In this document: one piece after another, positions 29,393-55,156 of the stretch
Position numbering within the stretch: position 1 is the stretch's first letter
How the letters are laid out: each line of letters starts with the position of its first letter
Assembly: GCA_008632985.1 (NCBI GenBank)
Contig: QPGO01000015.1
Coordinates: 125,998 to 189,997 of the forward strand
Source of the DNA: Psammoneis japonica
Taxonomy: Eukaryota
Direction of reading: 5' to 3'
DNA length: 64,000 nucleotides
Made by a program: the position numbers and the translations under genes
The notes under the pieces: model-generated
What the model saw: the letters and a program-made list of their open reading frames with translations, nothing else
The model's database searches: none
Told to the model about the DNA's origin: nothing

Positions 29393-29433
29393 ATATTCTT
29401 GTCAATCAGAAGAGCGTGACCTGGAAGACCGCA

Positions 29434-29802: not shown

Positions 29803-30321
29803 TCTTGTGAAACTACTTCTACTGAACCGAACGTGCCGTGACTTGAAAAGAGCCCTGATCTACCCATAACGCTCTCTACTTAGAGCTACTTGAGCAGTCT
29901 GTTTGCAAGGTTGGAAAGTTCAGAGATTCTTCTCCTACTTCGTAAGATAGTCACTCTGGTACGTGAAGGTCGTTCCAGGTTGGCAAAATCCCTCAACTTG
30001 GCGCACGGCGGACGCACGCAAACATTCGCGCTCTTTTTCGCGCGCCTAGCGACTCCAAAATGAAATGACCGAAAACTGCGTTGTAGATTCTACGTGATTC
30101 GTGTACCGGTATGAGGAATCCCCCATGGCGACTCCGACTCTTAGTTTTTTGAATGCCGTCTACGTGCGACCTACGACGTTTTCCCGTACAGATCTGGCTC
30201 CGTTCACCTGGTACATTTTCTACTTCGGCGAGCCGAATTCAAATCTCCCGCCGGAACGCAACCGCGGCGCGTTCGAATCACTTTTCGTTCGCTGTCGTCT
30301 CGTGAAGACTTTGTGATACGA

Positions 30322-32919
30322 ATGACATTCACCATGATGCTATCCTCTTCTACTCGCCCCCGTAATGGCTTCGCGCTTGCCTGGTCGGCCGTGCTTCTTG
30401 TCCTCTTCGCTTCGTTGAAACGCGGACAAGCCCGTCTCGATGAAGCGCACTTGGAAGGAAGTCTTCTTCGCGGTGGAAGCATTTTAGCAAGCAACCGTGA
30501 CTTGTTTGACCTTCCATCGCCCTTTGACTTCAACTCCGACGCGTGTCTAGCAAAGTGCACCGGTACGGACGACGAGGAACTAACCCCCTTTCTCAACGCT
30601 TGTCCAAAGTGCCCCGACAGGTACTCGAAGGAGCATTGCAACCATTGCTGCCTTGATGGCGCTTCATCGTTGAAGCTCCGCTGGCATGGATGCCCTCCTG
30701 GAGACTTCTCTTTTGCTTCTATCTCCGACATGAGCGAAGACTGCAATGTCGATACCGACGACTACGACGCTTTTGCCACTCCTCGCTTCGTCGATTGTGA
30801 GTGCTACGACGCCATCGCCAGTACCGAGTCATTCTCGCCTGTTGGATGTGATACGTTCAGCGTCTGGGACGTGACCCCAAGCAACGCAAGCTACTTTGAC
30901 ATCTGCATCGTATCGGTCTCGACTACTGGCGAGATGGACTTTTCCCAAGCTCTTTCGCCCGTTGTCGGCATAATCCATTCGTCCCCGGATACAGACGACG
31001 ATACGCACCCCTACATCTTCAAGAACGATACTACCGATTGGAACATGTATCCAATGACGACGTACTTCGACACGACGTGCAAGATTATCAATGGTGCCGA
31101 CTTTGTCCTACCAATTTTCCCTGGGTTCGGAAAGTTTCCCAACAGTTGCGCCAATGAGAGTTTCATTGACCTTGAAGAGCACGGAAATCCGCGGCTGCCG
31201 AGCGAAATTGACCACCATGATGGTGCGCCTCCGGAAGAAGCATTTTGGTTCGAGTTTATGGATGGAACAAGTACTTCGTTCTGGCCGAGCGACGGGACTG
31301 ATCTCGAGCATCATTCCTTCGACCCAACGTTTGCTGTTTGTTCGTGCACGGATTGCCAATCTCGCAATCCATCTGGTCCTCCTTCCGTATCGCCTCTCCC
31401 AAGTCCAACACGTTCTCCGGCTATTGATCCCACTAAAGAACCATCCATGTCCCCGACGGGCAAACCAACACCGTCACCAAGTGGTGATACGCCTTCCGTA
31501 CCGCCTTTCCCAAGTCCAACGCATTCTCCGGCTCTTGATCCAACTGAAGAACCATCCGTGTCCCCGACGGGCAAAACCACCACTTCTCCAAGTGGCGAAA
31601 CGCCTTCCGTATCGCCTCTCCCAAGTCCGACCCATTCTCCGGCTCTTGATCCCACTAAAGAACCATCCGTGTCCCCGACGGGCAAGCCAACCCCTTCAGG
31701 TGGAACGCCTTCCGTCTCGCCTTCCCCAAGTCCAACGCACGCACCGGCTGAGCCCTCTATCAGGCCTGTCACTCCGAAGCCCTCGCGCCGCCCTACAATT
31801 GGCACAAGTTCTCCGCCTACTATGCTTCCGACTCCGCCACAGTCACCAACTGTCAGCGCTACTGAGATACCCACAGCGCTCCCAACGTTCTCTCCGACGG
31901 CGGCGCCCACGGAGACGCAGGAAGATCCTCCTACTGAGAGCCCTTCGAATCAGCCCCACCAGCCCTCTCATCCTCCCGTTTTTCCTACCGAGCGTCCTTC
32001 GTCAAAGCCGTCGAACATGGCTTCTCCTACTATGACTCCTACAACGACGCCAACGGAGTATCCTACCTTCAGTCCTACTGCCTTGCCGACGGCTCTCCCG
32101 ACGTTCTCTCCAACGGCGGCGCCCACGGAAAGCCCTTCGAATCAGCCACACCAGCCCTCTCATCCTCCTATTTTTCCCACCGAGCGTCCTTCGTCAAAGC
32201 CGTCGAACGTTCCCACGGCTTCTCCTACTATGACTCCTACAACGACGCCAACGGAGTATCCCACCTTCGGTCCTACTGCCTTGCCGACGGCTCTCCCGAC
32301 GTTCTCTCCTACAAAGGCGCCAACGGAGTATCCCACCTTCAGTCCTACTGCCTTGCCGACGGCTCTCCCGACGTTCTCTCCTACCACAACGCCAACAGAG
32401 TATCCCACCTTCAGTCCTACTGCCTTGCCGACGGCTCTCCCGACGTTCTCTCCTACGACAACACCAACAGAGTATCCTACCTTCAGTCCGACGGTGATAC
32501 CAACGTCTCAACCGCACCAGCGTCCCTCGTCAAAGCCATCTCATGCTCCCAGCACTGGACCAACGACGCAACCAACTTACTGTGGACCTCATGAACCGAC
32601 TCTTCCGAAGACACCCACTCAGATTCCTTCCCAGGAACCATCTACTGCTCCAAGCGAGTGCGAAGATCGCCACTATGCAGAATGTAACACGTTTGCTCTG
32701 TTGCACTGCAGGACTAAAGCCGATGACGACTTTTGCTTCTTCCCTGGAACGAGGAAGCTACAAGCCTTGCAGTCATTTCTGTCTCAACTCGGTTCCCTTT
32801 CGTCGGTGGAGGAGGCTTTTCAGGGCGACGAAATCATTTCGAAAGAAGCGATTCTGACCGAGATTGGGAGTCACAAGGCCCGTCGCAGCATGCTTCAGCT
32901 CGGTTCTGAATCTGGATAG
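30322..32919 (+). CDS. Secreted/surface mucin-like protein with a Cys-rich N-domain and Pro/Thr/Ser tandem repeats
   Basis: ~865-aa ORF with a hydrophobic N-terminal segment, a Cys/Asp-rich domain, ~40-aa PSVSPLPSPT repeats (31380-31740) and PTEYPTFSPTALPTALPTFS repeats (~32050-32490). Confidence 0.88.
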   Translation: MTFTMMLSSSTRPRNGFALAWSAVLLVLFASLKRGQARLDEAHLEGSLLRGGSILASNRDLFDLPSPFDFNSDACLAKCTGTDDEELTPFLNACPKCPDRYSKEHCNHCCLDGASSLKLRWHGCPPGDFSFASISDMSEDCNVDTDDYDAFATPRFVDCECYDAIASTESFSPVGCDTFSVWDVTPSNASYFDICIVSVSTTGEMDFSQALSPVVGIIHSSPDTDDDTHPYIFKNDTTDWNMYPMTTYFDTTCKIINGADFVLPIFPGFGKFPNSCANESFIDLEEHGNPRLPSEIDHHDGAPPEEAFWFEFMDGTSTSFWPSDGTDLEHHSFDPTFAVCSCTDCQSRNPSGPPSVSPLPSPTRSPAIDPTKEPSMSPTGKPTPSPSGDTPSVPPFPSPTHSPALDPTEEPSVSPTGKTTTSPSGETPSVSPLPSPTHSPALDPTKEPSVSPTGKPTPSGGTPSVSPSPSPTHAPAEPSIRPVTPKPSRRPTIGTSSPPTMLPTPPQSPTVSATEIPTALPTFSPTAAPTETQEDPPTESPSNQPHQPSHPPVFPTERPSSKPSNMASPTMTPTTTPTEYPTFSPTALPTALPTFSPTAAPTESPSNQPHQPSHPPIFPTERPSSKPSNVPTASPTMTPTTTPTEYPTFGPTALPTALPTFSPTKAPTEYPTFSPTALPTALPTFSPTTTPTEYPTFSPTALPTALPTFSPTTTPTEYPTFSPTVIPTSQPHQRPSSKPSHAPSTGPTTQPTYCGPHEPTLPKTPTQIPSQEPSTAPSECEDRHYAECNTFALLHCRTKADDDFCFFPGTRKLQALQSFLSQLGSLSSVEEAFQGDEIISKEAILTEIGSHKARRSMLQLGSESG

Positions 32920-33123
32920 CGGGACTGGTCGACCTTTGACGCGAACGACAACTTTTTGTTGCGTCGCATTGGTTTCTTGGTGATAGAATCCAGTCGTTTT
33001 CCCATGCATAGCACTTGACTACTAACCAAAGTAAGCGAGATGATTATGAAACTGGTCAGATATGGTGCTTTCAGCAAACTCATTAATACAATGGACATTA
33101 TTATGCCCATTTGAGCAGTGACG

Positions 33124-34738
33124 TTATACGTTCTGATTCTTTATGAATTCCAAAGTGACAGCGGAGAAGAAAAAGTATACAGCCGACAGAGCGAAAATAA
33201 CGGAGTAACCCAACCGACTGTATTCCTCTTCCTCGTTAGTCTGTTCATCATGTTGGCTTCCCACTACGTACAAAAGTGGACCACCGAGCAGAGGGCCCAA
33301 AGCAGAGCCTATGAAGCCGGCAACACCCCAAATCCCTAGGAGCTGAGCATGACCCCCGCCTCCCTCGCCAACTTCTCGAGGCAAAGAATCAACCGCCAGG
33401 CTCGTATCCATAGTTAGATACACTCCATTTGCTGCGCCAAGAACAAGTACCGAAGTTGTAACATCATTCAAGCTCTGACAAATAATTAGGCTGAGAGTGG
33501 CGAGAAAAAGCAAAGTGCACGACAAGTAGACAAACGGCTTTCGACGGCTTCGGCAAAAACTATCAGATATCAGTCCAACGGGGTAGCATGTAACTGCACC
33601 TGTGCATTGACCGAGAATGGCAAGCGTTGCGACGGCAGTCTCGGGATCATCTCGAACGCCAATGACATCGTGGAGGTAGTAGAGGAAGAAAGTCTGAACC
33701 GAGATCCCCATGTAATACCACGTTCGGGAAACGGTTACCACAAAGAAATCATGAAACTTTGTCCTGTCAATAGTGTAGGACTGGCGAAGCGTACTCCAGT
33801 CCATGCTAGTCAATGGATCATACAGCATTGTCCGAAACAACAGAGAAGGCGTCAGGACGGTCGTCGGCGAAGCGGGTGTTTCACCGCGATCTTGTCGAAG
33901 CCTGCAAGCGTGTTCAACGTCCCCTGGGTGGGCATACAGGCAAGTGAGCACCGACGTGAAGATTATAATGCAGATGTATAATCCATACATGTCTGAAATT
34001 TTCTCGGAGAAGAGAGAATGGAAAAGTCCAAAGCCGAAGAGTGAGCCGGTGACGAGGAGGAGCGCCAAGGTACCGTTGGCCATTCCTGTTTGTGATTCTG
34101 AGATTTGATCGGGGATCAGGGCAATCATCGTAGTGTATACAATCATAAGCCCAATCATATGAAGAAAGAAGAAAAACCCGTATCTAAACCACTTTTTGAT
34201 AGAGAAAAACAAGTGGTTCAGGAAATCCGAGCACAATCAACTGCGTTGTAGCTATATAATTGACCAACATTCGTCCCGAACGTACCAGTGCTCGATCGGA
34301 TGAAAAAACCTGCCCAATCAGTCCGACGACTGTGAAAGCCGCACCGAGTACCAAATATGGCAAACGTTGTCCAACATCCTTTGGAGCGCGATAGTTGTCG
34401 CTTAAAGATCCGACTAATGGTGACACCAGTTGTACCGTTCCGGCAATTGCTACAAAGCAACCGAGAGCCACAGACTTTGGTATTGTTGAATCTCCTTTGT
34501 TGATGCGTTCGCATTCAACAGGGAGAGTTATCAGAAACAGTGTTGTCAGAATGCATCCGTACGCAAAAGCTGTCGATAGTATTGCAGAGATTTCCCACCA
34601 TTCTTTTTCGGTAGGAAAAGTGCCAGCGTGGATCTGCGTTTTTGATAGCCCGTCGTCTTCCTCGTCTTCTGTATTCTGCTCGGGTCCGTACCTGTGAGTA
34701 GCTCCATCGACAAGCCGCTGCTTTTCATAATCAACCAT
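33124..34738 (-). CDS. Major facilitator superfamily transporter, one intron (~34195-34284)
   Basis: Many TM segments and MFS motif A-like GSLSD...R.P and GLISD..RRKP, split over two frames joined by a GT..AG intron. Confidence 0.88.
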
Positions 34739-34949: not shown

Positions 34950-37900
34950 GCAGGTTGACGGTCACCGTGTTAACGGTGTTTGGGTTCCGCGTGGCGGCGT
35001 TGTTGCCAGCGCAGCGGTGGTTTGGGTTGTGTCTGTGGTGGCGGTTTGTTCCCGTGCAGGGTTTGTTGTGTCCATCGCCGACAGCAGTTGTCATGTGCCT
35101 GCTCCTGTTTTGTTGCATTTGCCATCATGTTCGTTGCGTCGAGGGACACAAAGGATTGTCAGGGGCGATTGGGTTGGCCAGTGAAGCATTTGCTGCTCTG
35201 GCTAGAGAGCAGCTCTGAAAATTGGCCACAAACGATTTGTGGCCAAATGAGAAATGGCTTGCACTTGCGCGCAAAAACAACAATGTCGGTGGCGAGGTTT
35301 CGACATTGTTGCTTGCACGCATGTCGGGGGCAGATCAGATTGAAATGCACTGCCCGAAAAAGAAAAACTTTCACCATGCTTCCCACGTGTGAAACCAAAA
35401 AGTGGCCAGTTTGTCTTTGTGGCCAATTTTCCATGTCACTGGAGTTTGAGGAGTTTGTCAATGACAAGCAGAATGACCTGGAATGACCTCCAAAGTGGGC
35501 ACAATTGCGAGAGGTCACAATCAGAAAAAATTCCACCATTTTGCATTTTGGCTGAAATTGCCATGCTCTTTCCCTTTCTCATCCTGCCCTTTCTCCTGCA
35601 TCAAAAAACTGTTGCCAATGAAATCAGGGCTGAAACATCACAAAAGTCTGGCAAGCCCCCACCTGCACACAAGGTCTGCAACTCAAGCAGTGTGCTCATG
35701 CCATGTGCTCATTGGTTGCTTGGCAGCCTCATTTGCTTTGGTCATGGGGAAGCAGATGCACAATCTTTGCATTTTCCCACAGACTTTGCACACCACAATC
35801 TGAGATGACCACGACAATGATCTCTGCAACAAGCTTGGCAAATTGTCTCTAAAAGTGCTGCGACACTGTGCCAGCACTCTGGGGCACCTCAGCTGGCAAG
35901 ACACCAGCAGTTTGGTGCAGGTGGGTGGCACCACCATGATCAAGGACTGCTGTGTGCTGCACTTGTTCATGGGCCTTCATTGCTTGTCCTTGCACTGTTT
36001 TTGCTCAACTTTCACAAGTGAGTGCCACCACAATGTGCTGGGAAGATGGAGCTGCAACTTGAAGCACCAAATTGTTCATGCAGAGTTAATTTTGCACACA
36101 CACACACACACTCACATCCAAGAAAATGCCAGCCAGATGACTCCATCCTGCTCACAGGTGGAGGTTGTGAGTTGGTGGAGCACTGGTGGGTGCAGCAGTG
36201 CAATTTGCATGATTGGCAATGGCACCAAATCAAAATTTTTGTGACAACAAACAATTGCAACAAGCTTTGTTGAATTCCTGCACAACTGCCTGACAGTGCT
36301 GTTGGCTGAACAACAACACAACCTTTTTTTCCTTTCCAAACTGCCCATGCAATGCTGGCAGCATGCTCTGGCACAACTGAAGGCACAGGTGCTCTTTTCT
36401 TGTGTGTGAAATGCTGCAAGATGCTGCACAGTGCATCATTTGCAGGGGGGCTGCTGTCTGCCTTGTTGCTTTTCTTGACACCCCTGCTGCTGTCTTCTTG
36501 TTTCCCCACACATTTTTTGCATCAAAGCTGCAACATTTAATTGTGGAAAGCAAAAGGTCACTCACACACTTGCCACAGATCTCACACACCCTTTGACAAC
36601 ACAAAATCTGGGCCACTTTTGTGTTTGCAAATTTGAGCTGGATTTCACTTTTTTTGATTTGGCGGATGAACAGCCAGGGGGTGCACACATGGTTCTGAGT
36701 TTCCAGGGCACAGGTGTGGTTGTGGAAAGAAGGCCACTTGCTGCAAGTGCAGCATGTGCATGTTTGAGCAAGACCAGACTGAGAGAATCAGAGATGCCAC
36801 CACCTTGGATGGGCTGCACCTTCTTGATGACTTGACATGGTGATGCTGGCTGCCAACTGAGTGCCTGCAACAGAGCCACACATGAGCACATCTGATGTGC
36901 AATGCATGCATGAGCACATGCCAGTCATTTGTGCATTTTGCCAACAGGGCAGTGTGGGTGGAAAGAGGGGGGCAAATCTGGGGAGGGCAATTGCACCATC
37001 TGTTCTTTTTTTTCATTGCCCGCTGCTGTGCAAAAACAGAGGGCCAGGAAGGGTGGGAATTTGTTGGCATTGTTGAGCCATTTTAGGCCAACACAGCTGA
37101 CCACATTGCTGCCAATGATTGTCTGAAGGTGCAACAAGGGGGCGCAGGGTTGGCTTCTCTCTTGTCATTTGTCTGACCTCCTGTGTGCTGCTGTCCTGTG
37201 CAGTGATTGCTTCAAGGAAAAGCTTGGCTGCCAACAAATGATCTTGTCCTTGTGCTTGGCTTGTTGTCTTGGCTGCAAGAGCTGGGGATTCTCACTGCTG
37301 CTGCCTTGTCTGGGCTGCACCTTGGCAACATGAGACACAGCATTGCCTCCAAATGGCAACATTTGCACAAATGAGTGTGTCTGGTGAGGTGCAGAAGCAC
37401 AGACATTTGTGTGTTGCAGCTGGCCAGCAGCCAGGGGAAAGGGCAACAAAAATCTGCAAATCCAGTTTGGCTCATTTTGTTCCTCAGCACAGCTGTGTGT
37501 GAGAGAGCAGAAGTCAAAGTGCTGCATGGAGTTCAAAGAAGGCAGGGACATTGCTGCCATCCAATTGTCATTGAGGAGGGCCCTGTGCTGCGGCAATCTG
37601 TGATGTGTTCTGTCTCTGGGGGGTGGGTGGACTCAGTGTGACATGAGATGCAAGCTGCAGAGCTCCATGTGCAAGCTCTGTGGCTCATGATGCATGGTGC
37701 AATGAACACACTTGTTGCTCTCAACATGAAAACAAATGACCACTTTTGCATCACATTTGCACCTCTTGTGCTTGAAATTCTGGAAAATCTGAATGAATGC
37801 ACTGCTGCAATCTGTGCAAACATGATCAGAGAGAGTGCAAAAGCAAACACAGACAGTTGTTGAATGCATGGTTCAACAATTGCGCTGGCCTGCAAACCAG

Positions 37901-39330
37901 AGAAGAATGGTCCAAGGTCTCACCCAGAGCTGGGGCTGAGAGCACAGCTTTGCAAATCTCAACCATGTGCACCATGCTGTGAGAAGAGATTCAGTGCAAG
38001 CAAAAATTTTGATTCCAACAATGTGAGGTTGCCCAGCCAGTGCTGTCATTGCAGCAGTGCAATTTCACACCCATCAATCAACCATGACAAGTTGTTGCAC
38101 ATTTGGCTTCATGTTCACAAGCATCTTGACCTGGTGGAAATCTGGCGCTGTTGGCTTCCATGACATTCTGATTGGCTGCAATTTGATTGCACCCCCCTGC
38201 AGTTGGCTGTTTGCACCTTGCTTGCTTCATCATGTGCTTGCTTTTCTGGATGGATTTTTGGCTCCACACTTCAGTTGTGCATCAACCATGAGAATGCAGG
38301 AGTGATTGAATCTGTTTGCATTTCATCCAAATGCCTGCATGCCTCATTGGAGGGAGCATGTTGTGCAGGCCACACAAGAGCACCACAACCAGAACAAATC
38401 TGCAGCTCAAATGTTGACCTGTGTCTTCCAGCAGCAATGAGGCACTGCACTCAGTCATGTTGCACACACTGTTGGCCTGTCAAGCAGTTGTCATTGGTCA
38501 TGCAACCGTTCCACACAATGTTGCACACACATTGCTCCATGAAGACAGTGCACAACCAGTGTGGCAGGAGCAACTGAAAAAACTTTGCACACCAAAGTGC
38601 ACCTGGCAGCACAAAGTGCAAGCTCTCCAGCAACTCAAAGAGAGAAAGATTGTGACCAGCAATCAACAGCCTCACAGCCCTTGGTTGTCAGCTCAAGGAG
38701 CTCTCACAACTTCAAGGAAGTTTCTCACATGTCCTGCTTGGGGCCAATGTCTGGCTGCAAACACAACCAAAGAAATGTGGGAGCTGGCAGGCTCACACAA
38801 AGAGACAGAGTGGGGTGGCCATGTCAGAAAGACAAGCAAGTTCTCAGTTGCCCAGTGCACAGAACTCACAAGCCAAATGTCCAAACCATCCAAACAACAC
38901 TGAGGATGAGCCGTTTCTCTGCACACACTCACCATTCCTCCAAGTGCACCAAGGGATCCACATTTTTGCAATGGCAAGTCTGCTGGGGTCAACAAAGTGC
39001 ACTGGCACTGCAAAGCCAACAATGGTCAAAAGCCTTGGCTCAGGAGATGCAAACAATGAGATCCCAAGCTCAGGTTTTTGCCCTCAAAGTCAATGACAGG
39101 CACAGACAGATGGAGCCCACTGCCCTTTTGCACCCACCCTTGAAGACAAGTGCACTGCAAAACAAAAAATCTGGTGCCAACCTGCCAGAGCACCCAACAA
39201 ATCATCAGGGTTGGCAGTGCAAGCCTTGTTTGAATGAAACCACTTGGGTTCAGCAAGCATTTCTGGAGTGAAGGGCCCACTTGTGAGAGACAGTTGGGAG
39301 CCCCTTCATGCTGCTTTTTTGGAGGTGGCT
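34950..39330. mobile_element. Hypermutated repeat/transposon relic DNA, class unresolved
   Basis: Abrupt switch to TpA-free sequence just upstream of the MFS gene. Only spurious Cys/His-rich ORFs are present. Confidence 0.5.
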
Positions 39331-39334
39331 GCAA

Positions 39335-42300
39335 CTCTTTCCGCACCCATGCTGTTTCTCGTGTTTTCGTTTTTTTATTTTCTCAGCACACAACAAAACA
39401 ACATCAAAATGTAAAACACCATGTAGAAACCAAAACAGGGCACATTTAAGCCGTTCTTGCTTTGTTGCATTCTCTTTCACTCCTGCTGACACTCTGTTGT
39501 TTATGAACCAATCAAAATGAGGACAATGTTGCCAACACACAGTGTTTTACTTTGAGCTCAAAATGCCGATGTTTTTGATGCTGATGATGACAGCAAGCAC
39601 GGAACTGATGATGGTTCTCTTTTTACGGAACGCACCCACAAGAGTGAGGACAGTGATGATTCATGCTCTGCACATGATGAAGACATGGAAGACAATGAAT
39701 TGGAGTGGTTGGCTGACAACCAAAGTGCTCCCATTGAGACTTTGCTAGAGACAGTCTGTTTTTCAGGCCATTCTGCTGCCGACAGCCAGGGTGATGAATT
39801 GGATCATGACAATGATGCAGCCGTGGATCCTTGGAATGAAACTGCCAGACCCTCTGTTGTAACTGCAGCTCAAAAAAAGCAGCGCAAAACCAATTCTGTT
39901 GCTCATCACTGGTTTGAGGAGAGCAGCGCCATTTTCATTTTTCTCGACGACTTGGAGACCAGTGGGGACCGCTGCGGAATTCTTCAGCTGTTGGCACAGT
40001 TGTTGGACCCAGAGGGTGAGACAGTTGCAGAAGACTTTGGTGAGCATGTTCAACCATCTGAAGGAGCAGTCTTCAATGCAACAGCTGCAGAAATGCATGG
40101 CATCCATGAAAATGACCCTTGCATCATGAACGCTGACCCCATTCAAGTCATTTGGCCAAGATTTGTCAAGCGTGTGGAAGACAACATGGACAACAGTCAA
40201 ATTGGAACAACAGTGGTCTGGAATGGTCAGACCTGTGACATGGAGTGGATCTGTGGGACACTCCATTCGCAAAAGCACTTGCACCATGAACTAAAAATGC
40301 TGAAGTTTTGCAACTTTTTCATGGATCCGCACCGTGTCATTGCCAAGTGCCACCAAGGTTGTGAGCTGCATCCCAACAAATCACAGCTGCCCAACTTGAG
40401 GCTTGGCACTTTTTGCAAGTTTGCAACTGGTCAGCCATTGGAAAATGCTCACAACTTTTTGGTGGATTGCAAGGCGCAGTTGGTCATGACATGCGATGAC
40501 AGGTTCAAGAAGCACTGGGACAAGTTGCTCTCAACAGTGTTGGTTGAAGAAATCTGGACAAAGAAACAAATGCGCCATCTAGAAGCAGAGAATGAGCCAA
40601 AGCAAGCAGTTCATGAAGCTTGGAAAGTAGACCAAGATGCTGAAGACTGGGAGCACCCAAGAAATTTGAGCTGCACATCCGCCGGCGGTGGTGGTGCAGT
40701 GGGCCCGTCCAGTGCAGTGTCCAAGGTCTGCTGCACTGGCAACCTTTCTGACTTGTGCAGATGCTTCCTAGATGATGAGGCACTGGACATGACAGCAAAG
40801 GAGTCCAGTTGTTGTGCTCACAGTGAATGGGTGGAAGAGGTGCCATGCCATGAAGGCAAGTCACGATGCTTTTGGAGGATTGACAAAAAGACTCCCACTG
40901 CATCATTGGGAGCATGAGCCGCATGGTTGGTGGTGCCCATGGATTTGCAATGTGATGAATCGTGATGCATTCAGTTTTGAAAAACGTTTCCTTCACTTTG
41001 CTTGGAGTTCAAGAGCACACCCAAAAGGCTCACCAGGCTGTGAACCATTGTTCAAAGTCAATCCAACACTCTACCTTCTATCCTCCAAATTGCAGAGAGG
41101 TTGGAACTGTGGCAAGAAGCTGATGACAGATGAGAGCATGATTCTTCACAAAGGGTGGGCCATCACTTTTGTGCAGTGCATGCCAGCAAAGCCCATCAAG
41201 CATGGGACAAAGGCATTTGCTCTGTGTTGTGCTGAATCTGCTTGTGTGTGTGTGTGTTCATTCTGCATCTGTGCTGGAAAAGACAACGCCAAAGAGACCA
41301 ACACCACCAAGATCGCAGCTCGTCTGATTCGTCAATGTGGCCTCTCTTGTTGGAAAGGCCACATCCTCTGCGTGGACAACTGCTGCACTACAACCGACCT
41401 TGTCAAGCACTGCATGGAACAGCGCAGTTGGTTGGTCATTGGCACCTGCAATCTTGCAGACAAAAAGGTGAAGGACCATGAGGAATGTGACTTTCCATTC
41501 CCCGTGATGTCGAATGGGGTGCTTGAACTCATCACATGTGGGTGGTCACGATGTGCTGCCTTGAGCATGAAGAAAGGCACTGGCTGCTGTGTTGTTCCAG
41601 CAACCATTTGGAAGGACAAGAAGCCAGTTGGGTGGCTGCACTCCCACAATGTCTGTGGGAATGATGGTTGCAAAGCATGGCGGCATGCATGAGGTCACGC
41701 ACAACCACTGGAAATTGATGTGCCGCCAGTGCAAAAAGACTGTGCTCTCAATTTCAATGTGGTTGACACATCTGACAAGGACAGTGCTGTGTGCAGCACA
41801 AGCCTTTGAAGCAACAGGTGGAACCTTTGGCATTTCTTCTTTTCTCTTGACTGAGTCATGTTCTCTTGCTGTGTCATCACAACACATTGTGCAAATTCCG
41901 GGTCCAAGCCAGATTGGAAAGACTGCCTTGACAAAGACCATGGCAGGTGCAGATTCCAAGTTGACTTGGGGCTTGCTTTGATTGAGGCAGGAACAAAAAT
42001 AGATTGGTCAGCTGCACATTCAGAAGATGGGAACAAGTGGGTGCAAAAAGTGTTTCTTTTGCAAAGCCAAAAAGACTTTGGGGGTGGCTCACAAGGTGAG
42101 GTGTGAAAAATTCACTCCTGATGATGCCAGTGCCACCAAATGTACAAAGAAAGAGAGGGTGACATGTCAGCACACAGCCAGTGGTGCATTGCATGCTTGA
42201 GGAAACGGCATCAACAGGTTGGTGAAGACAAGACTTGGGATGAAACCAAGCTGCATTGTCGTGGAATGACTGAAGGGTGCTTGCGCTGTAATGAACTGGT

Positions 42301-42503
42301 CTGCAAAGGTTGCTGGCCAAAATGCAGGCATGACAAGACTTGAAGGGAGTCATTGTTGTTGTTGTTTTTTATGACAGCACATTGTCAGCTCTGTCATCAG
42401 CATCAAGAATGCCAAATTGCATCAGCATTGATCGTGATGTTTGTGGTGTTGTGCACAAAACACGAGTGAGACAAAAAATTTTGTCCCGCAGGTGTGGAAA
42501 AAT
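39335..42503 (+). mobile_element. piggyBac-like DNA transposon, degenerate, with an exonuclease-transposase coding region
   Basis: Transposase motif DESMILHKG.AITFVQCMPAKPIKHG.KAFALC and second Asp motif CVDNCCT, plus a C-terminal Cys-rich domain. Degenerate TIRs are ctctttccgcacc (39335-47) and ggtgtggaaaaat followed by TTAA (42491-42507). An inverted ctcgtgtttt/aaaacacgag pair lies at 39358 and 42457. Confidence 0.85.
39685..42343 (+). pseudogene. DEDDh 3'-5' exonuclease + piggyBac DDE transposase + Cys-rich domain, frameshifted
   Basis: Exo I-like FIFLDDLETSG...ILQL, Exo II-like VVWNGQTCDMEWI and Exo III-like AHNFLVDCKA occur in 39685-40917. The transposase is in 40814-41692 and later fragments, with CIAC...CLRCNELVCKGC at 42140-42343. 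Confidence 0.8.
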
Positions 42504-43886
42504 TTAAAAAAACTTCCCCACAGAATCTCATCTGAAGGGTGGTCACAGCAACAGCCACAACAGTGGCCAAACAATGATGAAAACTCAGCTGCACACTGCC
42601 AGCAATGAAGCAAATGCCAAGCTTGATTTTGGCTGTTCACAATGAGTGCACATTGCCAGCAGCCATCTGGAGCTGGCAATGATGAACCAGAAGATGCTCC
42701 ACTGCTGGCATCTCCAGAACATCAGTGCCCCACTTCATGTCCATGCATTGGCAAATTTTGGCTAAAACAGCAGATGTGTCATGCAGGAGGTGCCCCAAGA
42801 CCTGCAGGAAAGGGACCAACAACAGCTTGGAGCACAGATGTGAGAGGAAATCAACCATGGCAGGTCTTGACTCAGCAGGAAAAGCTCCAAGAGTTTCTGG
42901 GAAAGGGAGCTTCTGACACAACTGAAAAGGCAACAAGCAAGAGCAAAATGGACAAAAAACATCATCTGCCACCTGCTGACACTCCAATCACCAGCCAAGT
43001 GCTTGCTTCAAAAATCAGCACAAAACAACAACAAGCACAAAATGCAGGCCAAATGGCTGTGCAACAGGTGCTGGCCCTGCAAAGATCCCATCAAAGCCCA
43101 GTTTTGCCAGCCAGAGCCAGTGTGAGGTTCTTGCTTGTCTGGATTTTGATGACCAAATTATTTCTGAAGTTTGTCAGATGAGAAAAAGTGAGTCAAAACC
43201 AAAGCTTGGCCCAAGTGACTCCATGATGGCAACAGTGCCAGTCAGAAAAAGAGTGCTGAAAATGGCAGCTTCCAAAGAACTCCTCATCCTCATGGTGCAT
43301 TCTGGTCAAGCCACATTTTGCTGACATGTTGTGCACTCTGAGCAAGCTGGAGGGTGGTGCTTCATTGTGCAACTCACACCAGCAGCAGTGTTGTTGGGAG
43401 CCGATCTCTTGGGTTGGGCAAGCACTTGGCAGCTCTCCAGCAGATCCAACACAAAAGCGGGCACAACACCCAATTTGGCCACCAACACTGGAGTGGGGTG
43501 GTTCAAAATCCAGAGAAAGTAAGTTGTCAACAGCCATGGAAGATGGCTCCAGCCAAAATGCACCATCAGAAATGGGGAATGGCCAGTTGAACAGTTTGTC
43601 AATGTCGACCAAACTGTGAGGCAATGAGCAAGAACAACTCAACAAAAGGGAGTGGACCAACAGCTGATTTGCAACCCCCCCTCCCTTGCATCCTTTGTGA
43701 GTGTGCTGTGTGCATTTTCTCTGGATCAACATTTGTGGGTTGATGGTTTCCATGTTTCAAACAAGCTCAAAAGTTCTCTCCTTTTAGCGCTGTGCACCAT
43801 GGCATCAGGCTGGAACACCATCTGTGCAAATGTGCTCAACAGCAGAGTTGACAATGGTGCTGACTTTCCTGCCCAAAAGGGAGACC

Positions 43887-44247
43887 TGTTAGAACAAGTT
43901 AGAAGATGGGAAATTTAGGAAATCCAGATGTGTTGTTGACAAAAAAAATTGTTGCTCCTGACATGGAGGATGCAGTGACTCACTGAGTGCAAAGGTGTGC
44001 CACCACCAAACTGACCCCACTTGTTTTGTTGTTCTCCCTCTTTGGAGTGAATCATTTGGCTTGTTAAGAACACATGATTGCACTGCATTGGCATCAACAG
44101 GCACCTGTCACATTGTGAGATTGAAGTTTACTTGGACAACTTTGCAGGCAACCCACAGCCACACAAGCAGCCAAGGCAAAAGCACAACAAGAGCAGAGGA
44201 AGCCTTGTGAGATTCCTGTTTGGTGCTGTTAAATTGCTGGTTCAACA
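43887..44247 (+). repeat. 5' LTR
   Basis: TGTTAGAACAA...CTGGTTCAACA, collinear with 51462-51964. Confidence 0.88.
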
Positions 44248-47200
44248 TTCACTCCAAAGAGCTGACAGCACAATCATGTTGGTGATTGTGGATGCTTTGC
44301 TGCCTGAAATTAAACAGATTGCTGAGCAGCAGCAATGTGAGTGGCAGAGGAAGTGCCAGAAACAATGACCAAGGCCAGGGTTGCAGTCATGGAAAGGGTG
44401 ACAACAGCCACAGCTCCTCTCAAGCCAAGAAGAAGACCACTGCTGAGAGATGCTTTTAGCCTCAGATGAAATTTCATCCTTCATCACTGATGGCAACAAC
44501 TCTTGTTGGAATGCAACCTTTGAAGATGTCCAGGAAAAGATTGTGAGGTGCGTGCAGAAGGAGTGCGCTCTCAAGGTGCACACATGGCAAGGTTCATTGA
44601 AGACATGGCTTGCAACAACTTCAGCACTGAAAGGCTGAAATTGGGAATGGCACTGATGGTGGCACTGACACCAGACAAGTCAGACAAGTTGCCACAGAGA
44701 CAACAAGAGGAAAAGGAACCAGAGCTCCAGTGCAAGGCAAAGCTTCCAAATGCAGTGGCCAAGCAAGGCAGCTCAAAGAGAACAAGACTGCAGCATTCAC
44801 CAACAAGACATCAGATGACTGCTGCACCAAGCAATTGAAGCAGAAAGTGCAAGCTGATCCCACTCATGCAAAGATCAGGGACAATCCAATCAAGCCATTG
44901 AAGCTGATCCAATCACTCACCTTCAACTCTGTGAGAGGTCAACACCCATTTCACAAGCTTGCCAGATCAATCCAGAATCTGCTGGATGAGAAACAACAAA
45001 ATCACAAGTCACTGAATGACTGCTTGTCAGGATTCAAGAATCAATGAGACACCACAAGTGAAGGTCTTGGCAAGCAAAGGCTGGATGAGTTCATTGAGAA
45101 TGCTGAAGAGTGCAAGGACAGTGCCAAAAGGCAACAAGGGGAAATGACAGATGCAGCATTTGAAACACAGACAACACACCTGTTTGTGCAGCATGATGAC
45201 AACTGCTTGTGCACAAGCTTCAAGAAGAGCTTCATCAGAGATTGCAGCCTGGGAAAGGACACATGTGCAAAGACCCCAGAGAAGGCAATGGATGCACTGC
45301 TGAATCATCTGAAAGACAAGAATCTTCACAAGAGAAACAACAAGAAGAACAACAAGCATGCAAATGATGACAACAAGAGCAAGAGGTCCGATTGTAGAAA
45401 GGACCAAAGCCATGCTCAGAAGAGCAACCAGAAGGACACTGTGACATGTCGCTGCTGTGGGGAAGCAAGCCACATGGCCCCAGACCCAGACTGCAAGCAC
45501 AAAAGAACAAGACAGTGTGTGATGATTGGCTCAAGGTTGCCGGCAGGAAACCAGATGCAAGGGGACAAAGTCATTTTCAGAAACAAGACAAAGACATCTC
45601 TTCTTTGAACATTGACAACACCAGTGCAAATGCCACCAGATCTGACCAATCCACCTGTTCAAACCAAAAAGCAGAGGAGCTGCATGGCATGGATTGCAGC
45701 TGGTCAACAAGAAACCAGAGTCAAGCATGAACCAAGTCAACAAAGACATTGGCATGGATGAGATCATCCTCAACAATGGTTTGACCCTCAGCAGCATGGT
45801 GGCCAGCTGGAGACCAGTGCACAATGTGTGACCCGCCAGGCCAAGATGGACCTGTCCAAGAATGCAGGAGTGGGCACTTTAGATGAGGCTGCACCACACC
45901 CAGATGGGAGGACATGAAGCTTAAATTGCAAGAAAATGTGTCAGCAAATGTTCTCAGGCCAAAGGATGTGAAGAGCAAACACCATCTTGCACATGACAGC
46001 CGAGTGGCAGACAAGTTGCAGCTGCTGGACAAGAAGACTGGCAAGAAAGTTGTGGTGTTCAAAGTCAACAACATCAGACTGCATGCCTTTGCACCAAGCC
46101 AGAAGTTCTTCAGCTGCACAAAAGATCTCCAAGAAAGCAAGCCCCATGTGAGCAGCTGTCAAAGACAAAGGAAAGGCTCAAAAAGAAGGGCAACACAAAA
46201 GCAGCAATGAGAGGCACCACAGGAGTGCACATGGAACTGTGGTTCTGATGCTCCCAGAGGGAGGTGGCGAATGCTGAGCAAGTGCTCAGGCCATGTTGCA
46301 AAGCCAGAATCCCCAGTGTGAGAGATTTCAAGCTGTTTTTACAATCAAAACAGGTGAAGAATCTGTCTGTCACACCTGAAGACGTGGACAGAATGGCGGA
46401 CATTTGGGGACCATCTGTCAAGGTGCCAAGAGAAAAGACCAAATGCACACATTGATCCCATGAGAGGAGCAACATCATTGCAATGACACTTGAGACACAA
46501 ACAAGAAACAGAGAGAAGGCATGATCCTCTGTGCTGACATTGTGGAAGCATGTGGAGCAAAGATCCTGCATGCAATCGACAAGACAATCAAGCGTTGATC
46601 AAATGTGAGACTGTGATCCAAGAAACATGCTGATGTGTGCAACATGTTGGACATGATGCTGCACCAATGCAGCATGGCTTTGTTCAAGATTGAATTTGTT
46701 GAGTGCAATTGCAAATTCAAGGACATGCTGGAAGACACTGCTGATGACCTGAACCTCAAACTGCCATCTGCAAATGCCAGCAACCATGTTCCTGAAAATG
46801 AGTGAAGTGTTGACACCATCAAGGAACAATCTTGAGCCACGGTGCACCACATGCCACACAAGGTGACACCCAAGCTGATGTTCAAGCACACAATGATCAA
46901 GAACACTGTGATGGTGAACACCAGCCTGCAAAAGGAAGGAATCTTTGACATGTGCAGTCCACACACTGTCATGCAAAGAAGAGTCCTTGTCCCATGTCAA
47001 AAATGGCTTGACAAACATGACAGAAGTGTGTGGTGTCAACAGCATGTGCCCCTGTGACCACATCTTGATGCACCCAAGGGTGGAGACTGCATGATGAACC
47101 TGCACACAGGGAAACTGCTGAACCCTGCAAATGCACTGCTGCACCCCTGACTGACATGCATGTGAGAGCAGCCAGTCAAGAAGATGGCCTCAGCAAAAGG

Positions 47201-47522
47201 CATCAAAGACTTTGAGTTTGTGGGAAAATGTGGAGACAACCTGCATGATGCTGATTGGACTGCAAGAGTGGACAACAAAAGAAAACAACAAAAACAAAGA
47301 AGACAACAACAACAGCAAAGAGGAAAGTGACAGCAAAGACAAAAACAAGTGCAAGATGATGGCAACTGAGTGACCAAATCAGAAGACAAACACTGCTGTG
47401 AAGAAGAGCCTGATCCAGAAGATGAATGTGAAGAAGCGAACAAATTGCTGGCAGGCAAAAGGTCCAATTCCAGTCAAAACACAAAGACAACGAGACAACA
47501 AAGAACAAGAAGACTGTGAAGA

Positions 47523-48140
47523 TGACAGAATGCCGAAGGTCAATGATGACAGAGGTGTGAAAGACTCCCCAAGCACCAGGACTGTGACAACACGAGCACC
47601 AGCAGATGAGAAAGTGAGAGGCAGATCTCAGAGAGATCTGCTCGTCATCTAGATGGTCTTGCCGTCATCCGCGTGCAGTCTGTCCATCGCAGGACAGTTG
47701 CATGTTCTTGAAATTCACAACAGATCTCTGCAATGGACATTGGAGCGGCCTTTGCAAGGTCGGGAGATGCCATGGTTTTACTTGGTGAGGGCATTTTTGG
47801 TCATGCACATGCAGAAATCTGGCATGTTTCTATGATCGTGAAAAATGCTGGGAAAGCGAGAAAAAAATGTTGTTGGAACAGACGATGAGGCTTGCTCGGT
47901 CGGCTCACAAAACAAACAAATCAAGACAGAAAGCTTGGAGCAGAGTTCTGTGGCACAGCGCAAGGCCATGACCTGACAGAATGCCAAAGGTCAATGATGA
48001 CAGAGGTGTGAAAGACTCCCCAAGCACTGGGACCACGAGCACCAGCAGATGAGAAAGTGAGAGGCAGATCTCAGAGAGATCTGCTCATCTGTCCAGATGG
48101 TCTTGCCATCATCCGTGTGCAGTCTGTCTGTCGCAGGATA
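47523..48140 (-). mobile_element. TRIM-like miniature LTR element nested in the copia pol region
   Basis: Direct repeats at 47523-47696 and 47974-48140 (~170 bp) flank a 277-bp non-coding core. On the minus strand the first repeat ends TGTCA and is followed by GGTCATGGCCTTGCG, resembling the GGTTATG half-tRNA-iMet PBS. No clear TSD or PPT. Confidence 0.65.
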
Positions 48141-51100
48141 GATGGGCTGACAGAAGAGTCAGATGAAGAATCAGAAGAAGATCCAGAAAGGGACAAATCA
48201 TCCACTGAAGGTCATGGAGAACTGAGACTGATGAATGAGGCAGACAGACTGCCAGGCAGAGTGACAAGGAGGAGTGGCACAAGATGTGGTGCAGCAATGA
48301 CGTGAAATCACTGGGACACTGAGAGAACAAAGTTTGGGTTGCAGGAGTGACAGACACAGCAACAGAAAAGGAGTGCAGAAAGCTTGAGTGCTGCATTCAC
48401 TTGAGAACTGACATTGGCTCAAATCCAGAGGATGACAATGTCAAATGTGATGCAGATGCAGGAATGACAGTGGCAGCTCACATGTGAGATCAACGGCCAA
48501 CTCCAATCAGAAAAGGGTGTTTCCTTTGCCCAGCAGTGCCCACTGCATGAGGCCCAACAGCATTTGGCCAGAGGACATGAAGCCCCAGAGAAAGAAGCAA
48601 AACAGCTGCATGACAGAGTGTGCTTTGCACTGATCTCAGTGAAAGACATGTCTCCGACTGAAAGGAGGATGAAGGCCATGATTGCCTTGATGTTCCTGAT
48701 GGAGAAGCACAATGGTCACACAAAAGGGCAATGGTTTGCAGTGGGAAACCAACTGGGGAATGGCTGGACAAGGAAGATTTGGCTGACCCAACTGCATCAC
48801 TAGAAGGTGTGCTGACAACAGCTGCCATTGATGCAATGGAAGAGCATGATGCAATGTGGGCTGATGTGCTGAATGCATTCATGCAGACATGGCACATGGA
48901 TCTTGGAGCCAAAGGAAGGCAAAGACCAGATCACAGCAAAGACCGCAGGAGTGTTGGTCAACATGTTGGCAAGCATGATTGATCCCAACCTGTGCAGACC
49001 ATGCACAGTCATGGAAAAGAGGAAGAGAGTCCTCTCTGCATCCAAGTCATTAAAGCAACAGCATGTGGCACGTTGATCGCAGCTTTGCTGTGGCACAAGC
49101 AGCTCTGCAAAGACTTGGAGAAGATTGGGTTTAAGCTCAGCCTGTGCAATCCATGCATTGCCAATTGGTTGATCCACAGCAAGCAGCACACCACGCCTTT
49201 TCACATTTGCAAGCTGTTGTTGAGCCACAAGAACCTCAGCGTCAACGGCAAACTTTTGAGCCAACATGCATGGAATTTTTGGTGAGGTTGTCATGACATG
49301 AGGAAAGAAACATGACTGCCTTGGGATGACACTGGACTTCAGCCACAAGGGCAAGGTGAAAGTTGATGTGACCAACTGTGTCCACACAAGATGATTGATC
49401 AATTCCCAGACAAGATCAAGAGCACCAACACCATCATGATGCCAGCAGGGAGAACCTGTTTGATGCAGGCGGCACTAGAATGTCAGCCAAAAAAGCAAAA
49501 ACATTCCATGCACGGGTGGCCAAGGGACTGTTTGCACCCAAAAGAGGCCAGACAGATGTGCGCCCAACCATTGCAGTGCTGTGCACACAAGTCAAGGGAC
49601 CAACCAACAAGGGGGTTGGGGGAAGCTGGTTCATTGTCTCAAGCATTTGAACTGGACAAGAAATGAAGTTGCTGCATCAAGTGCAAAGGACCTCTGAGTT
49701 GTCAAGTGGCACGCAGATGCATCATGTGAAGTGCACCTGGATTTCAAGACCCCTGCCGGAGGAGTTGTGACTGTGGGCAATGGAGCAGTGTGCAGGCCAT
49801 GTCAAAGCAACAGAAGCTCAACACCCAAAGCAGCACAGAAGCTGAGCTGGCAGGAGTTGACAATCCCACAACTGTGGTGCTGTGGACAAAGTTGTTCATG
49901 GAGCACCAAGGCTGTCCAATCAACAAAAACATCCTTTCTCAGGGCAATCTCAGAGTGCAGTGCTGTCCCACCAATGACATTCTTGGAGACTTCTTCATGA
50001 CTCAGCCCTCACAGGCCAGGGTGAGCAGTTTTGAAAACTGAAGAGAGCCATTCTGAGCTGTTGACATCAACAAGCATGACAGGAGCATTTCCTGTTTGTG
50101 ATGTCAGACAAGAATTCTGATGCATGTGGGTGAAAGAACCCTGCAATCTGGAAGATGCATTGAGCCGTGTGGTTCAACCAACCACCATTGTTCATTTTGA
50201 CATGAACCATGATGATCTCAATGGCCATTTGTGCCAATCCTGAAGAGGAAGATGCAAAGTGGGCTGTGGAGAAGCTTGAGCCAAATGATGTGTTCATGCA
50301 ATGGTGGCCACAACAGCATTTGGATGAGTTCCCAAAGTCAGACAAACTGTCAACAAGAGAAAGGAAAAGGCCATGAGACAAAGATTTCCAGAAGGCACTG
50401 GAAGAACATGACAAATGAAAGCAAGGTCATTGACATGCATTTGTTTGTGATCAAGTTCATGGAAGGCTGAGAGGAGAACTGGAACTCTTGGTGAGGACTT
50501 CCAGAAGAGCACGGGAAAGAATTTGAGTGAATGTGGCATGAGCTGTGGACAGCAAGACACAAAAAACAATGGGACACATGCACAAGGTGAAACAGCACAG
50601 ATGGTCCAATCATGCATGCATGACATTGTGTGTCCACTGCTGCACTGATGATCTCCTCACTTGACAATGGAGAGGAGACATTGACCGTGGTCAAGGACTT
50701 TGCAAGAGCAGCACACAAGACCAAAAAATGTTGGCAAGTTGAGATGACACAGGCACAAGGACTTCCATGTTTCAGGCTGTGACTCCAGCTGAGTGATGGC
50801 TTTAACCCAAGAGAACAACACAACATGAAAATGATTGTGGAGCCACACAGTGACAAACTCCATTTTGCATTAGATGCAAAGGACACCCGCTGCATGGGAA
50901 GGCTGTCAACATCAGGCTGTCCCACACACAGCATGGGTCATTGCAGGACATGCGAACCTTGCTCTTGTGAAGCTCACCACCAACCATCCCATGGAAACTT
51001 AAAAAAAAGTGGCAACTTGGGTTGTTGTGAGACAACAACAGAGGAGTTGTCTTTGATGCTTTGAAGCTGGCACAATTCTTCAAGCACAAAAATGTCAAAG

Positions 51101-51461
51101 CAAGGCCTCACAAGGAACAGACTTGTCACAATCTGGAGTTCTTTGAGTTGGGCCATGGAGTCATCAACAATTGGGTGATGGAGTCAATCAGACATGCCAG
51201 CCCACACAGCATTGCTGTGCAAGAGAAGACTTGGCATGCTTGTGTGAAGTGTTTCATGGATCAAGCATGCAAGATCACAAATGCATTTAACAATTTGCAG
51301 AGTCCACATGTTTGCAGGCTGAGTGGACATGCCAACGGAAGCATTGAAATGACCAGCAGGCCAGGAGGGCATGTTGTTGAGAACAAGGAGAAAATGCAAA
51401 GCCAGAGCATCAAGAGATGAAGTTGAGTGTGTGCAGAAAATTGGTGCAAGAGGCAGGAGTG

Positions 51462-51964
51462 TGTTGGAACAATTTAGAAGAAGGGAAATTTAGGAAAATC
51501 CCAGGTGCACTGAAGAAAAGACATTGTTGCTCCTCCTGACATGCTGGAGGATGTGGTGACTCACCAAGTGCAAAGGTGTGCCATCACCAAGCTGACCCCA
51601 TCCATTTTGACATTCTCACTCTTTGGAGTGAATCATTTGGCTCATCAAAAATGTGCGATCGCATTGCATCGGTGTTGCTGGAGAAATGCACTCTGACCCT
51701 GTCCACAGTTGTGGATTGAACGGCATGCCAGGCATTGTCAAAAGCTTGGTGCAGGCAGCAGTTGGCAAGGGCTGTGTAAATTTTAAGATTGAGTTGAATT
51801 GCATTGGTGTTGCTGGACACACCTGTCACATTGCAAGATTGAAGTTTGCACAGACAACTTTTGCAGGCAACCCACAGCCATGCAAGCAGCCAAGGTGAGT
51901 GCAATGAGAGCACAGGAAGGCACACATGATTCCCGTTTGGTGCCACCAACTTGCTGGTTCAACA
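51462..51964 (+). repeat. 3' LTR, about 140 bp longer than the 5' LTR
   Basis: TGTTGGAACAA...CTGGTTCAACA after the PPT, with an extra internal segment at ~51680-51810. Confidence 0.88.
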
Positions 51965-55010: not shown

Positions 55011-55156
55011 AGCCTAATGCGGTGCGACAACAAACATCAACCCTCTTCAATTATCAAACTTTCATCTTTTCAGAAGTGTTTCCCTTTGCTGCTTTTCTGC
55101 TGTTGACCCAATCTGTCTTAACCTAAAAAGGACAAAGGTTTTTTCCGTCTTCAGTG

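Follow-up and report, generated by a model that had tools for sequence, protein, structure and literature searches.

A decayed piggyBac element of Psammoneis japonica and its relatives with a putative N-terminal DEDDh exonuclease

The element considered here lies at positions 39335-42503 of a 64,000-nucleotide stretch of Psammoneis japonica DNA (contig QPGO01000015.1, positions 125,998 to 189,997 of the forward strand), which is called the window in the following. In identity as well as in architecture it is very probably a dead and heavily mutated copy of an autonomous DNA transposon of the piggyBac superfamily. Its borders had been proposed in an earlier annotation made from the letters only, here called the sequence-only reading, and proved correct to the base. 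The same annotation had suggested that the ancestral product was a single polypeptide in which an exonuclease precedes the transposase. PiggyBac is one of the main gene-insertion tools, and its chemistry is thought to require no end processing.

Canonical piggyBac transposases, represented by those of Trichoplusia ni (T. ni, PDB 6x67/6x68) and by piggyBat (PDB 9c0f), share with the clade described below the DDE_Tnp_1_7 core and its three Asp motifs. Common to both are also a C-terminal Cys-rich domain, an acidic N-terminus, the duplication of TTAA and ends which begin with CC(C). The first ~110 residues of the T. ni protein are reported to be disordered, and the part of that report consulted places no domain before the core (PMC7351741). 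In the proteins of the clade, by contrast, the acidic tail is separated from the core by a folded DEDDh exonuclease (~230 residues) followed by a conserved linker, and the total length is 880-1145 amino acids versus ~590 in canonical piggyBac.

The pairing of the piggyBac superfamily with the DEDDh class of nucleases was mentioned earlier in one line (PMC3627910), and the novelty which the sequence-only reading had attached to the fusion was therefore claimed too strongly. That line names no host, leaves the architecture (fusion or separate gene) unstated, offers no analysis and possibly refers to the diatom clade; the meeting report cited there (PMC3520738) names neither DEDDh nor piggyBac in the part consulted. 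KolobokD, a TTAA-targeting DDE superfamily, encodes a DEDDh exonuclease described by its authors as similar to Exuperantia, TREX and ERI1 (PMC9587614), the same set which the model of the window protein matches best. It differs in belonging to another transposase superfamily and in its hosts, which are molluscs, arthropods and cnidarians and not diatoms; the sections consulted treat the exonuclease as one of several accessory proteins, with no mention of a fusion (PMC9587614). Dada transposons, known from Laccaria and Ectocarpus, encode a DDE transposase polypeptide which includes a DnaQ-like 3'-5' exonuclease, and the authors proposed that this exonuclease processes 3' ends (PMC3706591). That exonuclease is of the DEDDy type and is inserted inside the catalytic domain, not N-terminal to it, and superfamily and targets differ as well (PMC3706591). 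Dada, Kolobok and, by report, P elements gained similar domains, a recurring solution to an undefined problem.

Among cellular proteins the DEDDh enzymes TREX1/2, Exuperantia, ERI1/3'hExo, ERI2, CRN-4 and RNase T share the fold (Z 17.6 to 14.0) and the five catalytic residues with the clade exonuclease. The latter is set apart by an identity of only 10-21% to them, by its occurrence only in fusion with a transposase and by its own motif variants (DLETGG..GI.QLSA, AWNG..CD..W and GAH.SLVD..AQ). A DEDDh exonuclease on a DNA-integration machine is also present in Cas2-DEDDh of CRISPR adaptation (PDB 8fyc), which is prokaryotic and has an unrelated integrase, the likeness being one of analogy only. 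Beyond the line in PMC3627910 no described piggyBac-exonuclease fusion was found in the full-text literature (Repbase and paper supplements lie outside this scope and may contain the family). New, besides that mention of the pairing, is a diatom-centred clade documented with its architecture, ends, catalytic conservation and fold. It extends the thin catalogue of diatom DNA transposons.

The exonuclease domain and its fusion to the transposase

A stop-free frame of 453 codons (39556-40917), called open reading frame (ORF) A, holds an acidic stretch, then three DEDDh motifs and then the start of the piggyBac domain, LCRCFLDDEALDMTAKE. All features of the element are on the plus strand unless noted otherwise. 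The DEDDh residue set comprises D and E of the Exo I motif, D of Exo II, and H and D of Exo III (H-x4-D), and all five are present in ORF A (D132, E134, D228, H299 and D304). Within this frame the motifs read DDLETSG (Exo I, 39946-39966), WNGQTCDMEWI (Exo II, 40219-40251) and AHNFLVDCKA (Exo III, 40447-40476). These, as well as the DDE and Cys-rich motifs named in the sequence-only reading, were all found on the plus strand where it had put them.

An exhaustive phmmer search with the 453 amino acids of ORF A against 1.84 billion representatives returned 411 relatives at E<=1e-3, 190 at E<=1e-10 and 27 at E<=1e-30. Seven hits within the best 150 are at least 800 amino acids long (881-1065), and all seven contain both the exonuclease and the piggyBac core. 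Intact single ORFs with both domains range from 881 to 1145 amino acids, which bears out the single ancestral polypeptide; one JGI record titles its protein 'Transposase IS4/Exonuclease'. The transposase half of an intact relative, P0003 (residues 480-971), was also used as query, and the 61 resulting proteins were scored with hidden Markov models (HMMs) of exonuclease and core. Six of them are distant canonical piggyBacs, in which the exonuclease is absent and the N-termini (77-218 residues) are unrelated, while 55 form a close clade. An exonuclease is visible in 49 of these 55, being complete in 40 and partial, from the first residues on, in nine. The remaining six reach positions 344-456 of the family HMM within their first 24 residues, i.e. 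they start in the linker and look N-terminally truncated. The sequence-only reading had considered that intact members might lack the exonuclease; none was found among the 55 close relatives, a count limited by gene calls on short contigs. The exonuclease is always N-terminal to the transposase core in the polypeptides of complete members, and at the level of predicted proteins the comparison demonstrates that the ancestor of the clade already had the fusion.

An unrelated exonuclease gene fragment could also have come to lie by chance inside one piggyBac copy. In the window itself a blastn search with the element gives the self-match only, without a second copy, and nothing beyond this single copy speaks for such a nesting. 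The same domain order recurs, however, in dozens of sequences with a mutual identity of 25-50%, and relatives found with ORF A and with the P0003 core alike repeat the fusion. Chance nesting is refuted by this, and its probability is practically nil.

With profile A1, built from 79 relatives, the solved structures matched were CRN-4 (3cg7, E 1.1e-7), a bacterial 3'-5' exonuclease (7t2s, 4.8e-5), ERI2 (7n8v, 1.3e-4) and ERI1 (1w0h, 1.4e-3). RNase_T (PF00929), which the sequence-only reading expected to be recognised, is listed by Pfam in nine of 20 relatives and exceeds the 24-bit cut-off in four (25.8, 24.4, 25.8 and 28.0 bits); the expectation holds for these relatives and not for ORF A of the window. 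An AlphaFold model of ORF A built on alignment A1 shows a predicted local distance difference test (pLDDT) above 90 for residues 110-350 and below 50 for residues 1-90. Foldseek relates this model to RNase T (E 4.9e-7) and to TREX1/2 (E ~1e-6), with template modelling scores of 0.6-0.7 on the target. A second structural aligner, independent of Foldseek, ranks TREX1 highest (Z 17.6, root mean square deviation 2.8, 199 aligned residues), together with the EXO-like domain of Exuperantia (Z 17.1), 3'hExo/ERI1 (Z 15.6), Pol III epsilon (Z 15.3), ERI2 (Z 15.2) and Cas2-DEDDh (Z 12.9). The two rankings of kinship differ, since the profile puts CRN-4, ERI2 and ERI1 first and the structure TREX1 and Exuperantia.

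Of 95 complete exonuclease domains from relatives, 85 retain the full set of five catalytic residues, and each of these positions is 94-100% conserved. As read from these alignments the active-site residues are under constraint, and the domain is probably catalytically active. The same numbers bear on the possibility that the domain is a silent scaffold, which like Exuperantia would serve dimerisation or nucleic-acid binding in the assembly of the transposase. The EXO-like domain of Exuperantia is indeed the third-best structural match. The remaining top matches, TREX1 and RNase T, are dimeric enzymes. PiggyBac also acts as a dimer (PMC7351741). Yet the retention of the catalytic residues in sequences which are only 25-50% identical is unexpected for a dead site, and we regard a scaffold as improbable.

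The transposase core is recognised in the window copy itself. In a Pfam scan at the permissive level of E<=1 the DDE_Tnp_1_7 (PF13843) match which had been anticipated was obtained at 40793-41692 (E 8.3e-15, 55.4 bits versus a cut-off of 22.4), covering profile positions 62-233 of 349. Each of the three DDD motifs retains its Asp: TDESM at 41126 (41126-41155), VDNCCTT at 41366 (41366-41392) and VVDTSD at 41750 (41750-41782), all of which align with piggyBat and T. ni piggyBac. The longer segment TDESM...MPAKPIKHG occupies 41126-41206. Nine of the 20 relatives tested with Pfam contain DDE_Tnp_1_7, and relatives score 1e-27 to 1e-45. P0003 matches piggyBat (9c0f) with E 9.2e-19 and T. ni piggyBac (6x67) with E 5.7e-13, spanning the three Asp motifs, and its motifs IDESM, DNYYTS and GVDxxD align with piggyBat.

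The clade transposase is thus a protein of ~1000 amino acids made of an acidic disordered tail, a DEDDh exonuclease with a TREX1/Exuperantia/ERI1-like fold, a conserved linker, a piggyBac DDD core and a Cys-rich domain. In the window copy the probable original start codon is the ATG at 39517-39519, followed by 12 codons in the frame of ORF A (39517-39555), the last of which is an in-frame TGA (39553-39555). The acidic disordered N-terminal region extends over 39556-39888 and is acidic in relatives too, and the exonuclease domain, as delimited by family profile matches, high pLDDT, fold and catalytic residues, extends over 39889-40590. The linker (40591-40752) carries the motif W...W..P...Y..GG..GP, of which SAGGGGAVGPS at 40678-40710 is a part, with columns conserved in alignments A1 and A2. 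The piggyBac domain begins in the exonuclease frame (40753-40854), where the DDE_Tnp_1_7 match of relatives begins as well, and its first helix, LCRCFLDDEALDMTAKE, is encoded by 40753-40803. The C-terminal Cys-rich domain (42036-42343) is split between one frame at 42036-42170 and another at 42146-42337, and the terminal TGA occupies 42341-42343. This domain matches positions 875-978 of the family HMM over 42036-42337 and contains Cys-rich segments at 42042-42095 and 42278-42316. By homology the domain is real, with its Cys columns conserved in family alignment A2, but the Cys-rich impression of the tail noted in the sequence-only reading comes in part from Tyr-to-Cys changes.

Mobility of the relatives and the ends of the window copy

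JGI metagenome contigs were scanned with an Exo I pattern taken from an alignment of eight sequences, which gave 45 loci. The whole protein is encoded in one frame in four of them (L001, L002, L007 and L010). The ORF of L007 (1017 amino acids, 5244-8294) is bounded by TTAA followed by CCTTTTCCTTCCTAG... at 5057 and by ...CTAGGAAGGAAAGGG followed by TTAA at 8774, and in L010 the two ends read TTAA followed by CCCTTTCTTTAC and by CCCTTTCCTTAC. These two are intact single-ORF copies with TTAA duplications of the kind which the sequence-only reading had proposed to look for. Inverted ends of the type CCYTTT... with TTAA on both sides are also kept in L025 and L037, around internally deleted genes. 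TTAACCYTTT-type ends were found in 17 of the 45 loci (left in 15, right in six, both in four). Five further loci (L027, L029, L030, L036 and L045) likewise lack the middle, and in all seven the N-terminal start of the exonuclease runs directly into a C-terminal piece of the core or of the Cys-rich part. Such internal-deletion derivatives are the usual debris of cut-and-paste elements. The layout of the loci demonstrates elements which are or were mobile, with CCYTTT... ends, internal-deletion derivatives and a predicted TTAA-targeting cut-and-paste mechanism.

Pairs of loci are either ~65-73% or 98-99.8% identical. Three loci on different metagenome contigs (L012, L013 and L014) are copies with 98-99.8% identity and have a short GT...AG intron in the transposase core (1830-1912 in L012).

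The proteins might alternatively be the products of domesticated host genes, the window copy being a pseudogene of one of them. Many relatives are on contigs of ~3-4 kb which are possibly transcripts, and one lineage (L012) has the spliceosomal intron, as would suit such genes. The TTAA-flanked inverted ends around the ORFs of L007 and L010 argue for transposons instead, as do the deletion derivatives L025 and L037 with both ends retained, the family-type ends in 17 of 45 loci and the additional right-end copies at other TTAA sites in the organism of the window (see below). Domestication is therefore highly improbable.

The clade is found in diatoms and marine metagenomes. The relatives with names come from Thalassiosira profunda, T. 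exigua, Cyclotella meneghiniana and Cylindrotheca closterium, to which one MMETSP transcript is added. The stramenopile distribution suggested by the sequence-only reading is in agreement with these and with the genes of the window itself, which point to diatoms. The ESM Atlas cluster nearest to P0003 has 107 members, of which 99% contain DDE_Tnp_1_7 and 15% RNase_T; Chlorophyta predominate among the few taxon labels in this cluster, which we take as no more than a lead. Among viral contigs 54 matches to the pattern contained no relative.

At its borders the window copy reads CTCTTTCC... (39335) and, as reverse complement, ATTTTTCC... (42503). Both sequences are similar to CCCTTTCC, with which intact relatives of the family end. 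The left terminal inverted repeat (39335-39350, CTCTTTCCGCACCC...) has seven of eight matches to the family end, and the right one (42488-42503, minus strand, reverse complement ATTTTTCCACACCT...) was placed by alignment; both are degenerate. On the right side the TTAA target-site duplication can be read directly at 42504-42507; the interval of 38.5-43.5 kb contains just one other TTAA. The corresponding place on the left (39331-39334) aligns with the right TTAA and with that of relatives, but reads GCAA. Of the degenerate repeat pair in the sequence-only reading the right TTAA is present and the ends resemble the family end, but on the left GCAA stands in place of TTAA and the ends taken alone do not exceed chance. 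TCAA would be the expected product of a TpA>CpA change and GCAA would lie one change further. Between the left end and the ATG there are 182 nucleotides in the window (183 in L007, 177 in L010 and 176 in L025), and 160 beyond the stop to the right end (187 in L010, 176 in L025).

Two other Logan contigs of sequencing run X1, which is possibly the sample the window was assembled from and therefore no independent confirmation of the sequence, are common to the window only over 42470-42507/8 and diverge straight after the TTAA. They support the right end and show that this organism has more copies of it, each at a TTAA site of its own. The TTAA at 39446 was rejected as alternative left end, as its fit to the right arm is 5/15 by letter count versus 10/15, and as a different X1 contig resembles the window to its left as well as to its right (39428-39496). 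Diverged copies of this 5' subterminal piece (39428-39496) occur in X1 contigs of the same organism. One X1 contig holds a variant of the Cys-rich region in which 97 nucleotides (42164-42262) are skipped.

Possible roles of the exonuclease

The overall best explanation, which we consider fairly probable, is that the window contains a dead piggyBac copy from a clade of exonuclease fusions, in which the tethered exonuclease would work on DNA 3' ends. That the role of the exonuclease is processing of DNA 3' ends is, taken for itself, an evenly balanced proposition. Being permanently tethered to the transposase, the enzyme would act in the transposition complex, where it could trim or clean the 3' ends of the excised transposon or of the donor DNA and so enable them to be joined. 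An analogy is offered by Cas2-DEDDh, in which the fused DEDDh domain trims 3' overhangs of DNA before integration. Processing of DNA 3' ends is favoured because the tether is invariant, because other DDE transposons (Dada, KolobokD) independently acquired DnaQ-like exonucleases, and because the nearest structures are DNA exonucleases.

Several points weigh against this reading. No Pfam family was found in ORF A of the window copy at E<=1, which leaves the exonuclease undetected there, and phmmer of ORF A against the PDB returned no match at E<=10. As both are silent on ORF A, the window copy alone does not settle the exonuclease claim, and its domain is detectable only via the family profile and the structure model. 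Most relatives are on short contigs of unknown origin, and the counts of intact and truncated members hinge on gene calls. By statistics the ends of the window copy are at chance level: the pair is outside the 25 longest of 159 inverted pairs, a transition-tolerant alignment of the ends gives 28.5, which is reached by 26 of 1000 random pairs, and TTAACCCTTTCC occurs 36 times in the window with at most three mismatches versus 38 times expected. The ends were accepted because of the family comparison and their position. Canonical piggyBac leaves complementary 5' TTAA overhangs which are annealed and ligated, with no exonuclease step in the account consulted (PMC7351741); as its chemistry includes no trimming, the need for a 3'-5' exonuclease is not obvious. 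RNA exonucleases are among the proteins which match best by sequence (ERI1, ERI2 and CRN-4). Fold and sequence cannot tell a DNA from an RNA substrate, and for any member the role of the exonuclease is deduced by comparison.

These matches may instead suggest a function in counter-defence, by an ERI-1-like trimming or degradation of host small RNAs or of their precursors which would weaken the silencing of the element by small RNAs and methylation. The ERI1/ERI2/CRN-4 group leads the sequence-profile matches, 3'hExo and ERI2 have considerable structural scores (Z 15.6 and 15.2), a 3'-5' exonuclease has no evident use in piggyBac chemistry (PMC7351741), and the loss of CpG makes clear that this DNA is silenced or mutated by the host. 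A free protein would do equally well for that purpose, yet the exonuclease is fused in all 40 complete members. Unrelated transposases took up similar domains, one of them within the catalytic core (PMC3706591). DNA exonucleases, namely TREX1 and DNA-bound RNase T, are at the top of the structural matches, and no RNA-binding module such as the SAP domain was found by Pfam in 20 relatives. Counter-defence is accordingly unlikely. Somewhat more doubtful still is a specific form of it, in which the transposase would bring an ERI-1-like enzyme to its own locus or transcripts and destroy the small RNAs which guide silencing and methylation of the element. If true, the clade would provide the first demonstrated case of a DNA transposon with a suppressor of RNA silencing of its own.

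Whichever substrate is used, a large natural clade which keeps an intact 3'-5' exonuclease on its transposase suggests a benefit from 3'-end trimming or from RNA degradation in cells. The intact ORFs of L007 and L010 make the role of the exonuclease testable.

Decay of the window copy and its surroundings

The family HMM comprises 979 positions, and the window copy is matched in four pieces. The first (39586-40854) corresponds to positions 31-427 (E 2e-93) and the second, in another frame (40862-42049), which is the piggyBac DDD catalytic core with the Pfam match given above, to positions 476-869 (E 1.5e-121). A third frame (42036-42170) corresponds to positions 875-923 (E 1.4e-7), and with 42146-42337 the second frame returns (positions 916-978, E 1.3e-8). 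There are three frame changes, and at the first break (40855-40900), where HMM positions 428-475 are uncovered and tblastn switches frame, ~45-48 codons are missing. In-frame TGA stops interrupt the core at 41690, 41807 and 41852, and a further TGA at 39553 lies between the probable ATG and ORF A. With missing codons, frame changes and in-frame stops the copy is dead. Every stop codon in it is TGA. The long open frame of ORF A is weaker evidence than it appears, because DNA which is nearly free of TpA excludes TAA and TAG.

Outside its genes (~4-17.5 kb and 35.5-54.5 kb, the element included) the window has an observed/expected ratio of 0.04-0.25 for CpG, of 0.01-0.08 for TpA and of 1.8-2.0 for TpG/CpA, with unchanged GC content. 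In the gene islands of the window CpG is near 1 and TpA 0.45-0.86. The decay of CpG to CA/TG assumed by the sequence-only reading is therefore found, but it is not confined to CpG, as TpA is lost too. Because the DNA lost both dinucleotides, the conserved Tyr residues have all disappeared from the window copy. In 19 columns in which at least 60% of 35 full-length relatives have Tyr, the window copy has no Tyr; 11 are Cys (TAY>TGY) and three His (TAY>CAY). Conserved Arg is retained in nine of 24 columns and has otherwise given way to, among others, Q, W, H, C or stop. Over 307 conserved columns the window copy agrees with the family consensus in 64% (family median 85%, minimum 64%), and when Tyr and Arg columns are left out in 71% (family median 84%, minimum 63%). 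As the agreement rises without these columns, much of the damage consists of transitions at two self-complementary pyrimidine-purine dinucleotides.

The loss of CpG fits deamination of methyl-cytosine. For the parallel T:A>C:G change at TpA we know of no mechanism, and a literature search on such a parallel loss of TpA found no paper; repeat-directed hypermutation or a modified base at TpA may be responsible. An assembly artefact was rejected as source of the CpG and TpA loss, since Logan contigs of run X1 (depth ~70) have the same letters, X1 being possibly the source sample and not independent. The copy is a fossil without functional consequence, and its interest lies in the thorough rewriting by the host, with CpG and TpA both removed.

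The TA-free tracts (3500-18500, 35500-39400 and 42400-55500) contain 55 ORFs of at least 130 amino acids on both strands, none of which has a Pfam match at E<=0.001. Such DNA cannot hold TAA or TAG and therefore yields long spurious frames, so that in the repeat tracts here the length of an ORF is no evidence for a gene.

A compact gene island at 19504-34236 consists of long, apparently intron-poor ORFs, which encode polyubiquitin, a 2OG-Fe(II) oxygenase, a CRAL/TRIO protein, RPN11, a beta-catenin-like protein 1, a PT-repeat protein of 924 amino acids and an MFS transporter. The best named matches of the beta-catenin-like protein are diatom proteins with 35-40% identity; the best match, which lacks a species label, has 46%. 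This places the window in a diatom or a closely allied ochrophyte outside the sequenced model species. On the other side of the element two adjacent ORFs on the minus strand (56345-58090) each have an HSF-type DNA-binding domain (E 1.2e-20 and 2e-13). Tandem HSF genes are consistent with diatom genomes. The neighbours of this HSF pair are two Lin0512_fam ORFs (58083-60320) and a gene for a PAP-fibrillin (60623-61429).

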